Positions 1-8,928 of a DNA stretch of 8,928 nt are shown here, one piece after another (position 1 is the stretch's first letter; each line of letters begins with the position of its first letter). Made by a program: the position numbers and the translations under genes. The stretch lies in IMG/VR virus record IMGVR_UViG_2657245131_000016, one strand, 5' to 3'. Below the pieces are notes generated by a model that was not told the DNA's origin, searched no databases, and was given only the letters and a program-made list of their open reading frames with translations. This DNA comes from a virus. Taxonomy: Duplodnaviria > Heunggongvirae > Uroviricota > Caudoviricetes.

Positions 1-232
1 GAGCTTCATTTAACGCCTTACGCAGTTGCAGAATTTCAGATTCCAGTTCAGCCACCGTGCGGGAACCAGGAGTACCGAGCCCTTTTCTGGCGGCGGTAAC
101 CCATTGTCCTAAAGTGCCTTCAGGAAGAGATAATCGGGAAGCGCCTTCACTGATCGAAAGTTGATTTTCAAGAACCGTTCTGACAGCTTCGGCTTTGAAC
201 TCTTTAGAGTAACGTTGGGTTTTTCTGCTCAT
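1..232 (-). CDS. IS3-family transposase OrfA (IS600-like), first 77 codons; remainder outside the window
   Basis: Minus-strand translation from the ATG (complement of 230-232) gives MSRKTQRYSKEFKAEAVRTVLENQLSISEGASRLSLPEGTLGQWVTAARKGLGTPGSRTVAELESEILQLRKALNEA, which I recognise as the IS600 OrfA N-terminus. It is not in the ORF track because it has no stop inside the window. Confidence 0.85.
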   Translation of the reverse strand, partial: MSRKTQRYSKEFKAEAVRTVLENQLSISEGASRLSLPEGTLGQWVTAARKGLGTPGSRTVAELESEILQLRKALNEA

Positions 233-296
233 TATTAGCTCCTTCTGATGCCATTCTATTTCAGGAAGGAGTGTCCGTTAAACTCAGGCTACCTCA
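1..296 (-). mobile_element. IS3-family insertion sequence, IS600-like, partial (inner end with terminal inverted repeat; rest lies beyond the window start)
   Basis: The minus strand reads TGAGGTAGCCTGAGTTTAACGGACACTCC... from position 296, a TG-initiated terminal repeat about 64 bp upstream of the orfA start, the usual IS3-family layout. The boundary at 296 is inferred from the TG convention and recalled IS600 end sequence, not from an alignment. Confidence 0.8.
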
Positions 297-507
297 GGTA
301 TGTAATCATTCTGGCAATGCTTAATGCCGCTGCTTTTTCCAGATTGGTGATATCCTGCTCCAGAGCGGACAGATTTTCAGCCTGCTTAGCCCTGGCTTCA
401 TTGGCCCATTTCAGGTCCTGCACCGCCTTAATTTTCTGGTGCATCCACTCATAAAGTTCATCATCGGTATAGTCTGGCGCGATGATGACGGGGTCTCGTT
501 TCTGCAT
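289..507 (-). CDS. hypothetical protein (72 aa), second gene of the leftward early operon; stop codon lies inside the IS terminal repeat
   Basis: ORF with a GGAG Shine-Dalgarno 5 nt upstream of the ATG (complement of 505-507). The product MQKRDPVIIAPDYTDDELYEWMHQKIKAVQDLKWANEARAKQAENLSALEQDITNLEKAAAL... looks like a coiled coil. The last residues and the stop are encoded by IS sequence (289-296), so the native C-terminus may be lost. Confidence 0.5.
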   Translation of the reverse strand: MQKRDPVIIAPDYTDDELYEWMHQKIKAVQDLKWANEARAKQAENLSALEQDITNLEKAAALSIARMITYLR

Positions 508-579
508 GTCGGCTCCTTGTGGTTAGCGTTGCCTGCTTTTTAACCACGTCAGGCGAGGTGGTATCCTCTGAGGGGTCTG

Positions 580-936
580 TTACTCGAGAGGAAATTGGTT
601 ATGAATACAATCAAGTTTTCTTGCCCAGAATGTGGTGGCTAAGTCTTTGACACATCCTTTAAGCCGCAGGGCTCTGACAGTTTCGCGGGAGCCATCTGCA
701 AAAATTGTGGTCACCTTGTAACTGAAGATGAGTCCTCGCAGTTCGATGACGAAATCGTTGACAATATCTTCGGTGCACTCACCAGAGACTTTCTGAAGTA
801 AAGGCGCATACCGCTTAGTTACCGCTCTGATAACTCTTACCTGTCCGGCAATGGCGCTGATATCAATATAAAGCGCCATCGCTGTTTCTTTGCTGATCCC
901 TGGACGCCTTCCATTCTGATGTTTGACTTCGCCCAC
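580..936 (-). CDS. hypothetical protein (118 aa), first gene of the leftward early operon downstream of the repressor; GTG start
   Basis: ORF in the track; the first codon is GTG (complement of 934-936) with an AGAGGA Shine-Dalgarno about 8 nt upstream on the minus strand. No family recognised by eye. Confidence 0.5.
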   Translation of the reverse strand: MGEVKHQNGRRPGISKETAMALYIDISAIAGQVRVIRAVTKRYAPLLQKVSGECTEDIVNDFVIELRGLIFSYKVTTIFADGSRETVRALRLKGCVKDLATTFWARKLDCIHNQFPLE

Positions 937-1143
937 TGAGAAATCCTCTGCTTCCCCTTAACGCCGGGTAGCGGAACTGTTTGCTGAGAACACCGTGCGG
1001 TGTCTTGATGAGTAGAATTTAGAATAACCTAAGAGTTATGGTCAAGCTTTTTGTGTAGAAAAACCTAAGCTTCTTGATGTAAAAAACACAAGTATTTGAA
1101 AGTTTGTGCTTTTTATTACAGAGAGTTGCGAAAAAAAGGGGGG
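937..1143. promoter_or_regulatory. OL/pL-like control region between the repressor gene and the leftward early genes, with repeated operator-like motifs
   Basis: Direct repeats AACCTAAG at 1026-1033 and 1062-1069, and TCTTGATG at 1003-1010 and 1072-1079. The same AACCTAAG motif recurs inverted in the repressor/cro intergenic region. A weak hairpin plus T-run at about 1087-1114 could terminate the repressor transcript. Confidence 0.4.
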
Positions 1144-1551
1144 TTATTTATTTGCGCTTCTTTTGCGAGCTTTGAGTAGTTCTTCAAAAAGTTTGTTGAA
1201 ATTCTCAACTCGAGCACGCATCTCTGACAACAGAGCCTTTTGCTCTGACTCAGGCAGTGCGTCGAACAGTTGAAGCAACTCTTTTTGATCTTCTGTCAGA
1301 TTGACTGGCTGATTATCTGGGATCGGTTCGCCTGGTTGCTTATCTTCATCTCCAAAAAGAAGCCAAGTCGGCGAGCACTGAAGCGCCTGGCTCAGTGCGA
1401 ATAATCTCTTCCCCGCTGGCTGTGTTTCATCTCTTTCCCATTGAGAAATTGTTACGTGAGCCACTTTGACCAGCTTACCTAATGCGGCCTGAGACAGTTT
1501 TAATTTTTTTCGCCTGTATAAGAGGCGAGCACCGAAGGTTTCGTTTTTCAT
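1144..1551 (-). CDS. dicA: prophage repressor, DicA-like (XRE-family helix-turn-helix; no LexA-type S24 peptidase domain)
   Basis: 135 aa. The N-terminal helix-turn-helix (LSQAALGKLVKVAHVTISQWERDETQP), the FALSQALQCSPTWLLFGDEDKQP stretch and the C-terminal NFNKLFEELLKARKRSANK match my recollection of E. coli Qin DicA, which is also 135 aa. It sits divergent to a cro-like gene. The protein is too short for a C-terminal peptidase domain. Confidence 0.85.
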   Translation of the reverse strand: MKNETFGARLLYRRKKLKLSQAALGKLVKVAHVTISQWERDETQPAGKRLFALSQALQCSPTWLLFGDEDKQPGEPIPDNQPVNLTEDQKELLQLFDALPESEQKALLSEMRARVENFNKLFEELLKARKRSANK

Positions 1552-7211: not shown

Positions 7212-7280
7212 TGAATTCATCTACAATTCAGCGCAGGGCTGAACCCCTGTTGAGTAACACTGTGCCACCGGAGAAAGCCG

Positions 7281-7559
7281 ATGGCGCAAAATTCCAGACT
7301 ACACAATTCTGATAATTCAGCCGTCTTTGCCAGCAGGCACGGGCGGCGTTCTCATGCATTCAAATCTGACTGGTTCCGGCACGCCCCATGCACTGAAGAA
7401 CAGGCCGAATGGCTGATTCAGAACTACCGCAGACGTGGGTATGAGTTTAGGAAAGCCCTCAGCCTCGATTATCGTCACTGGATAATCTACGTCAGGCTGC
7501 CGTACTCCGAGCGCCCACCGCGTCCGTCCCGCACATTCCAGCAACGCATCTGGAGGTAA
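7281..7559 (+). CDS. hypothetical protein (92 aa), translationally coupled to the downstream DUF968 gene
   Basis: GGAG lies 7 nt upstream of the ATG. Its TAA stop (7557-7559) is 1 nt before the GTG start of the next gene and overlaps that gene's GGAGGT Shine-Dalgarno. Basic, Arg-rich product; no family recognised. Confidence 0.6.
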   Translation: MAQNSRLHNSDNSAVFASRHGRRSHAFKSDWFRHAPCTEEQAEWLIQNYRRRGYEFRKALSLDYRHWIIYVRLPYSERPPRPSRTFQQRIWR

Positions 7560-7560
7560 C

Positions 7561-8553
7561 GTGCGGGTATTACTTCGACCTGTTCCGGTACCGGAACTTG
7601 GGTTGGTGGTCCTTAAACCAGGCCGTGAATCCATGCAGGTATTCCATAACCCTCGAGTGCTTGTGGAGCCGGAACCGAAAAGCATGCGCGGTCTGCCGTC
7701 CGGCATCGTCCCTGCCGTTCGCCAGCCGCTGGCGGAGGATAAATCATTACTGCCGTTTTTCAGCAATGAGCGTGTGATTCGTGCTGTTGGTGGCGCTGGT
7801 GCACTGTCTGACTGGCTGTTGCGTCATGTCAAATCCTGCCAGTGGCCTCATGGTGACTATCATCACAGTGAAACCGTTATTCACCGTTATGGTACCGGCG
7901 CAATGGTGTTGTGCTGGCACTGCGACAACCAGCTGCGTGACCAGACATCCGAATCACTCGAGCAACTTGCTCATCAAAACCTGTCAGCATGGATGATTGA
8001 CGTCATCGGTCACGCAATAAGCGGTACGCAGGAGCGTGAATTATCTCTGGCTGAATTATCCTGGTGGGCGGTCCGCAATCAGGTGGCGGACGCGCTACCG
8101 GAAGCGGTATTACGTCGTTCGCTGGGGTTGCGTGCGGAAAAAATCCGCTCAGTGTACCGTGAAAGCGACATCGTACCGGGAGAGCAGACCGCCACCATCA
8201 TACTGAAGCAGCGCACAAAAAATCTTGCGCCGCTGCCTCACGCCCACCAGCAAAACCCGCCACAGGAAAAGACGGTGGTCAGCATTGCCGTTGATCCGGA
8301 GTCACCGGCTCAGTATCTCCAGCGCCAGAAACCACAACGGGAAGAGATGCCTGTATACACGCGCTGGGTAAAAACGCAGAAATGCATGACGTGCGGTAAT
8401 CAGGCAGATGATCCGCATCACATCATTGGTCATGGACTGGGAGGGATGGGAACAAAGGCTGATGATTTGTTTGTTATTCCGCTGTGCCGTAAAATTTCGT
8501 GGCTTCATGTCAAAACACGCCAATGTGGAAATCGGTCTTGCCCTGCGTTCTGA
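7561..8553 (+). CDS. DUF968-domain prophage protein, YdfU-like
   Basis: The C-terminal Cys/His motif [36 protein letters not shown] is characteristic of the DUF968 family as I recall it, and the gene lies in the nin/Q-proximal position. Start taken as GTG 7561; the first in-frame ATG (7633) has no Shine-Dalgarno. Confidence 0.7.
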
Positions 8554-8806
8554 CCGCTGGGCGGGCGCGGATTTCTGGGAGCAGCAGGGCAGGCGCGTCA
8601 GCCTGGACGATATCCTGCAGCGCGCTGATGTGGTGACGGTGGGGATTGACGGCGGGGGCCTGGATGATCTGCTGGGAATGTACGTGATTGGCCGTGACAG
8701 GGAAACCCGCGAATGGCTGGGCTGGGGCCATGCCTGGGTGCATGAAACCGCGGTGGTCAGACGGAAGAGTGAGGCATCCCGGTTTCAGGATTTTGTGGCC
8801 TTGTAG
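8507..8806 (+). pseudogene. truncated ORF ending at the IS junction; product uncertain
   Basis: The frame is open from 8408 and its stop TAG (8804-8806) lies in the first bases of the IS terminal repeat. No Shine-Dalgarno at the candidate ATG 8507 or GTG 8525. It contains the motif [22 protein letters not shown], reminiscent of the first acidic motif of RNase-H-fold nucleases (RuvC-like resolvases, terminase nuclease domains). By Qin gene order a Q-like antiterminator would be expected here. Confidence 0.35.
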
Positions 8807-8928
8807 TGGCACACTAAATTTGGCCACCTGATGAAAGGTGATATTCTCACCACAACACAAAACAGGTGACTTAATGAACAAGAAAACCAAACGAACCTTC
8901 ACCCCTGAGTTCAGGCTGGAATGTGCAC
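8802..8928 (+). mobile_element. IS3-family insertion sequence (IS911-like group), partial inner end continuing beyond the window
   Basis: TG-initiated terminal sequence TGTAGTGGCACACTAAATTTGGCCACCTG... lies about 72 bp upstream of a transposase orfA start. The exact boundary (8802-8804) is inferred. Confidence 0.75.
8874..8928 (+). CDS. IS3-family transposase OrfA, first 18 codons; remainder outside the window
   Basis: The ATG at 8874 with an AGGTGA Shine-Dalgarno gives [18 protein letters not shown], which resembles IS3-family OrfA N-termini such as IS911 (MKKRNFSAEFKRESAQL... as I recall it). Confidence 0.75.

Follow-up and report, generated by a model that had tools for sequence, protein, structure and literature searches.

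Two different IS3-family elements and an eroded prophage segment at ompW in Escherichia coli O121:H19

We describe an 8,928-nucleotide stretch of phage DNA (IMG/VR record IMGVR_UViG_2657245131_000016; we refer to this whole stretch as the window) in which an 8.5-kb prophage segment stands between two insertion sequences (ISs), namely IS600 on the left and a 1258-bp element of the IS3 family on the right. Seven complete Escherichia coli chromosomes, for example NZ_CP027454.1 of strain 2014C-4423, match the window at 100% over all 8928 bases, and their serotype labels, where given, are O121 or O121:H19; two further O121-type genomes match at 100% over window bases 297-8928 only. The host is E. 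coli O121:H19, of the group that makes Shiga toxin (STEC), and not Shigella. A Shigella origin, which a sequence-only reading of the window had suggested by calling the IS load typical of Shigella-type genomes, is ruled out by these matches to O121:H19-type STEC chromosomes.

Positions outside the window are given in L001, the annotated locus of the source strain, whose coordinates equal those of the window plus 12000. There the window forms part of a lambda-like prophage adjoining ompW. To its left the RefSeq annotation places int (frameshifted), xis, exo, dicB and two small open reading frames (ORFs), and to its right lie lom', tail-fibre genes and the effector genes nleA, nleH1-2, nleF, nleG and espM1. 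Such lambda-like, effector-carrying prophages at ompW of STEC and enteropathogenic E. coli (EPEC) have been described as the PPompW family (Nakamura et al. 2021, PMC8112680). The prophage studied here sits in ompW, which adjoins int/xis, and has the characteristic integrase and early region of that family; the segments common to L001 and the PPompW of O145 are 94.9-99.9% identical, and 99.85% identical across the window's segment. The window is made up of known elements in published genomes. Its boundaries and breakpoints are as follows.

1..296, minus strand: left inverted repeat and orfA-proximal 296 bp of IS600 (RefSeq 'IS3-like element IS600 family transposase'; edges from the empty-site comparison)
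297..299, no strand: GGT, inner copy of the IS600 target-site duplication (the other copy, at L001 11030-11032, is outside the window)
289..507, minus strand: ydfC, 72 aa, whose last two codons and stop now come from the IS600 terminus
7561..8493, plus strand: the first 933 of the 1056 nt of the DUF968 (ydfU-like) gene, which breaks off there (O145 comparison, Pfam)
8493..8494, no strand: deletion breakpoint without an IS, between DUF968 nt 933 and terL nt ~911
8494..8801, plus strand: codons 305-406 of the 553-codon terL (terminase large subunit), an internal piece of that gene (sequence comparison)
8802..8928, plus strand: left inverted repeat and orfA end of the 1258-bp IS3-family element (the alignment to O145 stops at window 8801)

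IS600 at the end of ydfC

The whole IS600 copy is 1264 bp long (L001 11033-12296) and extends past the left edge of the window; its orfA starts at window position 232 on the minus strand and reads leftward. When L001 is compared with the 99.85%-identical PPompW of O145, the alignment breaks at L001 11032/12297 and three O145 bases are used twice. That is, IS600 is flanked by GGT on each side, as against the empty site GTGGGTATG of O145 and two O121-type strains; the empty site (...ACGTGGGTATGTAAT...) is found in O145 RM8988 and in the IS600-free O121-type strain 2014C-3599. Given this duplication relative to the empty site, IS600 at the left junction is a simple insertion, a transposition with a 3-bp GGT duplication.

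The element starts with TGAGGTAGCC and closes with the inverted TGAGGTGTAC; its ends are TG..CA, with TGAGGT.. at both termini, and its inverted repeats match at 20 of the 30 terminal bases. The 100-aa OrfA is followed by an OrfB encoded in the -1 frame; an A7G slippery site (AAAAAAAG) stands at nt 316, and RefSeq records a programmed frameshift. Pfam finds HTH_Tnp_1 in OrfA (1.5e-20), and HTH_21 (1.8e-13) and rve (3.9e-26) in OrfB. The copy therefore has the two-ORF frameshift layout, the helix-turn-helix (HTH) and DDE (rve) domains, the TG..CA repeats and the 3-bp duplication of an IS3-family element. The name IS600 rests on the RefSeq label, on the 1264-bp length and on the source names of OrfA, since the exact protein is called 'IS600 ORF1' in UniRef/NCBI, with Shigella dysenteriae among its members. 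The sequence-only reading had recognised an IS3-family end in this terminus, and the full element, of which window 1-296 is a part, was indeed found on extending leftward.

The effect on ydfC is small. The end of the protein changes from ..ITYPR* to ..ITYLR*, the IS600 terminus completing the codons for L and R and the TAG stop, and YdfC has 72 aa with or without IS600, P71L being the sole difference. It had been proposed that the left insertion truncates a gene, a proposal that was to fall if the flanking ORF proved full length in IS-free homologues. This is what we find at the left junction, where the IS-free ydfC allele also has 72 aa.

In the Qin prophage of E. coli K-12 the operon order is dicA-ydfABC-dicF-dicB. 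Past IS600 there follow a 408-bp ORF, whose start codon is 33 bp from the IS, a 234-bp ORF, a DicF-like RNA and dicB; these are the same genes as in IS-free genomes, and nothing has been displaced. The expectation that dicF and dicB would come next at the left junction is roughly right. The DicF-like RNA adjoins dicB at L001 9997-10046 (minus strand), outside the window, and its match (43.5 bits, E = 8e-8) falls below the Rfam gathering cutoff of 48 bits for DicF. A weak STnc100 match overlaps the dicB-proximal spacer near it, also outside the window. From its position, we infer that IS600 would separate the downstream ORF, the DicF-like RNA and dicB from the phage promoter; such polarity is the one plausible functional effect of the insertion.

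Two deletions to the right

The right-hand part of the window holds two breakpoints, the first of which, at 8493/8494, was overlooked by the sequence-only reading. Here DUF968 is joined to the middle of terL. Microhomology and an IS remnant were looked for at 8493/8494, and neither was found. In O145 the interval corresponding to the gap is 4.9 kb long and holds rusA, Q, tRNA-Ile, tRNA-Arg, an ISEc20 and terS. Strain NIID080884, which keeps the late region, also has nanS-like, holin, lysozyme and antirepressor genes after DUF968. The deletion took out rusA, Q, tRNA-Ile, tRNA-Arg and terS together with the 5' part of terL; judged from NIID080884, it probably included the lysis genes.

The fusion has consequences for annotation. 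The first 29 codons of ORF 8408-8806 are out-of-frame DUF968, the remainder is terL codons 305-406, and the TAG comes from the IS terminus TGTAG; since it is a product of the DUF968/terL fusion, this ORF is not a gene. Similarly, the 330-aa 'DUF968 protein' (7561-8553) that the Prokaryotic Genome Annotation Pipeline (PGAP) gives in the source strain consists of 311 genuine and 19 out-of-frame residues; PGAP marks the same gene as partial, a pseudogene, in 2014C-3599, yet as intact in the source strain.

The second breakpoint is occupied by the right-hand IS, whose full length of 1258 bp spans L001 20802-22059 and ends at window-equivalent position 10059. Its orfA starts at window position 8874 on the plus strand, and its inverted repeats (TGTAGTGG..) match at 20 of 30 bases. 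Its OrfA is 103 aa long, OrfB is read in the -1 frame, the A6G site (AAAAAAG) is at nt 333, and RefSeq gives a programmed frameshift; Pfam finds HTH_Tnp_1 (8.8e-13) and rve (3.4e-27), the same domain set as in IS600. With its -1 frameshift between orfA and orfB, its HTH and rve domains and its TG..CA repeats, this too is an IS3-family element, and window 8802-8928 belongs to an intact copy of it, as had been anticipated for the right terminus. Several further geometrical claims of the sequence-only reading stand: the orfA-proximal ends of both elements face the phage segment and their transposases read outward, with orfA starts at 232 (minus) and 8874 (plus), and an ORF does end at each junction, the stop codons TAG 289-291 and TAG 8804-8806 lying within the IS termini. 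Both termini match annotated IS copies of complete genomes exactly, and the resemblance is not due to chance.

RefSeq names the right-hand element just 'IS3 family transposase', and a search for a more specific name in plasmid and phage collections, exact-protein cluster names and the literature gave only this. Copies 100% identical to it are widespread on E. coli plasmids, and over its full 1258 bp it is 92.7% identical in nucleotides to an element that RefSeq assigns to the ISEc31 family, the sole relative with a name that was found. A published IS census of O121:H19 names as the principal intact members of the IS3 family IS600 (27 copies), IS629 (10) and ISCfr6 (6) (PMC9397093). With queries made of half-IS junctions, each O121-type chromosome shows 7 to 9 places for the right-hand element; this number is an upper bound, since other prophages are matched by the terL and lom halves too. 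ISCfr6 would be compatible with this number; as a name for the element it is an unconfirmed guess from the census.

Two side observations concern this element. The 92.7%-identical ISEc31-family copy lies in another prophage, in O55:H7 DEC5D (L007 1343-2600), where it abuts the lom start codon region and adjoins a second copy and an IS fragment; that site differs from the O121 breakpoint at lom nt 221. The Rfam small RNA (sRNA) family isrC (RF01387) gives a full-length match of 150 bits at window 8870-8928 (L001 20870-20992, plus strand), on the 5' part of the right-hand orfA, so that the family here coincides with the leader and coding region of an IS transposase.

The flanks of the right-hand IS are terL nt 1219 of 1662 on its left and lom nt 221 of 624 on its right, and its flanking bases are CCT and TTG, that is, a 3-4 bp target duplication is absent. 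The absence is explained by the copy's position, for it joins terL to lom across a deletion of ~17.8 kb, and it says nothing against a place in the IS3 family. In the intact module of strain 02E060, which served as the reference for the lom breakpoint (the O145 lom fragment is a different allele and does not align), terL nt 1219 and lom nt 221 lie 17,839 bp apart, with capsid, portal, tail, tape-measure and J genes between them. By this comparison, ~17.8 kb of head and tail genes have been lost. The claim that the right insertion truncated a gene is therefore correct only in part: there is a gene fragment at the junction, but ORF 8408-8806 is no gene, and the damage (~17.8 kb) is far larger.

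How the IS came to join terL to lom admits two answers. One is homologous recombination between two directly repeated copies of this IS that had inserted into terL and into lom; the other is an adjacent deletion from a single copy, mediated by the IS or by the IS-excision enhancer (IEE). The missing duplication (CCT versus TTG) is expected under both. The chromosome carries several further copies of the element (7 to 9 places, again as an upper bound), and IEE-dependent deletions adjacent to IS3-family elements are documented up to >40 kb (PMC9943667). None of 5426 complete E. coli genomes has this IS at just one of the two positions, be it terL or lom, and without such intermediates neither route is preferable. 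We rate two-copy recombination at a little below an even chance.

Distribution, order of events and the remaining genes

The junctions were surveyed in the same 5426 genomes with 200-bp junction-centred queries, with the following results.

IS600/ydfC junction: 7 genomes
DUF968/terL junction: 9 genomes
terL/IS junction: 9 genomes
IS/lom junction: the same 9 genomes

All nine junction-bearing genomes are O121/O121:H19-type. Both deletions are common to every complete O121-type genome (9/9), while the IS600 copy is polymorphic (7/9), being absent from 2014C-3599 and RM8352. The IS/lom query gave a tenth match, in O55:H7 DEC5D, which is the ISEc31-family copy at the lom start, at the other site mentioned above.

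This distribution fits an order in which the right-hand events are older and the IS600 insertion is later. One of the right-hand events was the IS-free deletion, which fused DUF968 to mid-terL and removed rusA, Q, two tRNAs, terS, the beginning of terL (its 5' part) and, probably, the genes for lysis. The other joined terL nt 1219 to lom nt 221 by the 1258-bp IS, through two-copy recombination or IS-adjacent deletion. As the third event, IS600 would later have transposed into the last ydfC codons, inside the leftward operon of ydfC, ORF, DicF-like RNA and dicB, leaving YdfC at full length.

Some points weigh against this account. The order of events rests on nine complete genomes and on no phylogeny; no genome intermediate to the right-hand deletion was found; and the IS600-free state of two strains could reflect precise excision instead of ancestry.

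The last of these points deserves separate treatment. IS600 is amplified in O121:H19, with 27 copies in strain 51104 (PMC9397093), and IEE-driven excision and deletion are documented in this serotype (PMC9397093, PMC9943667). Precise excision of an IS600 copy out of lacZ, mediated by IEE, has been shown experimentally in O121:H19, and a fixed copy was removed in a sublineage (PMC9397093). A secondary, IEE-aided loss from 2014C-3599 and RM8352 would leave exactly the unduplicated target that their empty site displays. However, an unaltered target is equally expected of the ancestral state, and the empty site also occurs in O145 and other serotypes. We thus consider secondary excision possible but unlikely, and retain the later arrival of IS600. 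Less likely still is a further proposal, in which IS600 would act as a reversible, IEE-excisable switch uncoupling DicF and DicB, which inhibit cell division, from repressor-controlled phage transcription and, separately, the 8493/8494 junction would be a natural scar of IS excision by IEE accompanied by a flanking deletion; we regard it as speculative.

Finally, it had been suggested from the sequence that the 8.5-kb segment could move or be deleted by IS-mediated recombination. In one such reading both elements and the DNA between them would make up a composite, transposon-like unit, moving as a block or excised by recombination end to end. The segment is indeed enclosed by two intact IS3-family elements whose ends are inverted relative to each other. 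But these are different elements, as the same reading had correctly noted. The longest word they share has 11 nt, at the frameshift site, and there is otherwise no nucleotide similarity; their OrfA proteins are 28% identical and their OrfB proteins 32%; and their terminal repeats differ (TGAGGTAGCC.. in IS600, TGTAGTGGCA.. in the right-hand IS). Lacking nucleotide similarity and having different repeats, the two cannot be partners in homologous recombination, and each transposase should fail to recognise the other element's ends. A 3-bp duplication of its own shows that IS600 arrived alone; no duplication surrounds the pair, whose outer flanks are continuing prophage (left) and lom (right); no second locus was found; two O121-type strains have the segment without IS600 at the same locus; and the segment lies at ompW, 100% conserved, in all nine genomes. 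A composite unit is, on these grounds, extremely improbable. Rearrangement with other chromosomal IS600 copies is possible in principle; it is generic to an IS-rich lineage, and none was observed here.

We conclude, with high confidence, that the locus results from three independent events, with each IS acting on its own, and is a fixed, non-inducible prophage remnant rather than a transposable unit. The genes that remain between the two ISs, besides ydfC, the cut DUF968 gene, the terL fragment and two small ORFs, are as follows.

580..879, minus strand: hypothetical early-left gene in the ydfA/ydfB position of the Qin dicB operon (RefSeq coding sequence; no Pfam match)
1144..1551, minus strand: CI/DicA-like HTH repressor (Pfam HTH_3 and Phage_CI_repr)
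1628..1855, plus strand: Cro-like regulator, divergent from the repressor (Pfam P22_Cro)
1839..4624, plus strand: early-right genes, namely YdaT-like, DnaT-like/replication initiator, replication protein P and DUF1627 (annotation, Pfam)
4790..6242, plus strand: cargo, with a pseudogene for a fimbrial protein at 4790-5323 and the adhesin gene paa at 5484-6242 (annotation, Pfam)
6431..6733, plus strand: hok/sok-type toxin-antitoxin, with Rfam sok at 6431-6580 (104 bits) and the hokD coding sequence at 6578-6733 (Rfam, annotation)

Without Q, an intact terminase, head and tail genes and probably lysis genes, and with a frameshifted integrase, the prophage is a fixed cryptic remnant, which the hok/sok locus may help to stabilise. 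In the cargo block the fimbrial pseudogene is frameshifted, paa is of the AcfC family with an SBP_bac_11 fold, and a stretch of 33% GC (5201-5600) lies upstream of paa, which suggests a moron-like acquisition. Opposite the hypothetical gene at 580-879 (minus) there is a short ORF, MNTIKFSCPECGG, at window 601-642 (plus), ended by TAA, which resembles the beginning of a zinc-ribbon protein that a stop codon has cut short. Beyond the window, in the lom'/tail-fibre stretch L001 22060-24100, the source strain is 100% identical to itself alone, and 7 of the 8 other O121-type genomes are 99.3% identical to it, despite the window itself being 100% identical; this pattern suggests local gene conversion among the tail-fibre genes of co-resident prophages.

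As for significance, the two deletions locked an effector- and adhesin-carrying prophage (paa and hokD, with nleA/nleH/nleF downstream) into the O121:H19 chromosome, and the polymorphic IS600 site could serve strain typing. The locus is a small natural example of prophage erosion by IS3-family elements, possibly driven by IEE, a process already described for STEC, and beyond such bookkeeping its significance is slight.

Comparison with known systems

The left-hand copy resembles IS600, a member of the IS3 family first described in Shigella, in its length, orfA/orfB layout, A7G site, TG..CA ends and 3-bp duplication, and differs by position alone, that is, at the 3' end of ydfC in a PPompW prophage, where 7 of the 9 complete O121-type genomes carry it. 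The right-hand element is like the ISEc31 and ISCfr6-type (IS911-like) elements in architecture and in its 1258 bp, with 92.7% identity to the ISEc31-family element; it differs in having only a generic RefSeq name, and this copy, without a target duplication, marks a deletion.

Compared with Qin of K-12, the O121 locus has the same order of repressor, small ORFs, ydfC, DicF-like RNA and dicB, along with a divergent Cro-like gene, but it has an extra 408-bp ORF between ydfC and the DicF-like RNA, a DicF match below the cutoff, and IS600 after ydfC. It shares with the PPompW of O145:H28 the integration site, the early-region genes (99.8% identity) and the downstream effectors nleG and espM1, and differs in that Q, terS, the genes for head and tail and probably those for lysis are lost and the integrase is frameshifted. 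The PPompW copies of O145 and NIID080884 have independent IS insertions and deletions of their own. In O145 RM8988 (L003) there is an ISEc20 after the tRNAs, the lysis genes are lost, and a deletion runs from lom to an IS256 fragment; in NIID080884 (L004 14076-15232) an IS600 lies inside xis, and a deletion extends from the antirepressor to the tail fibre.

The closest process is the decay driven by IS629 and IEE in O157:H7 (Ooka 2009; Kusumoto 2011, as cited in PMC9943667 and PMC9397093). That decay is alike in its IS3-family elements within prophages, its large IS-adjacent deletions and its IS-free scars. The O121 case differs in that a role of IEE would have to be inferred, and in that the 8493/8494 junction has neither microhomology nor an IS remnant.

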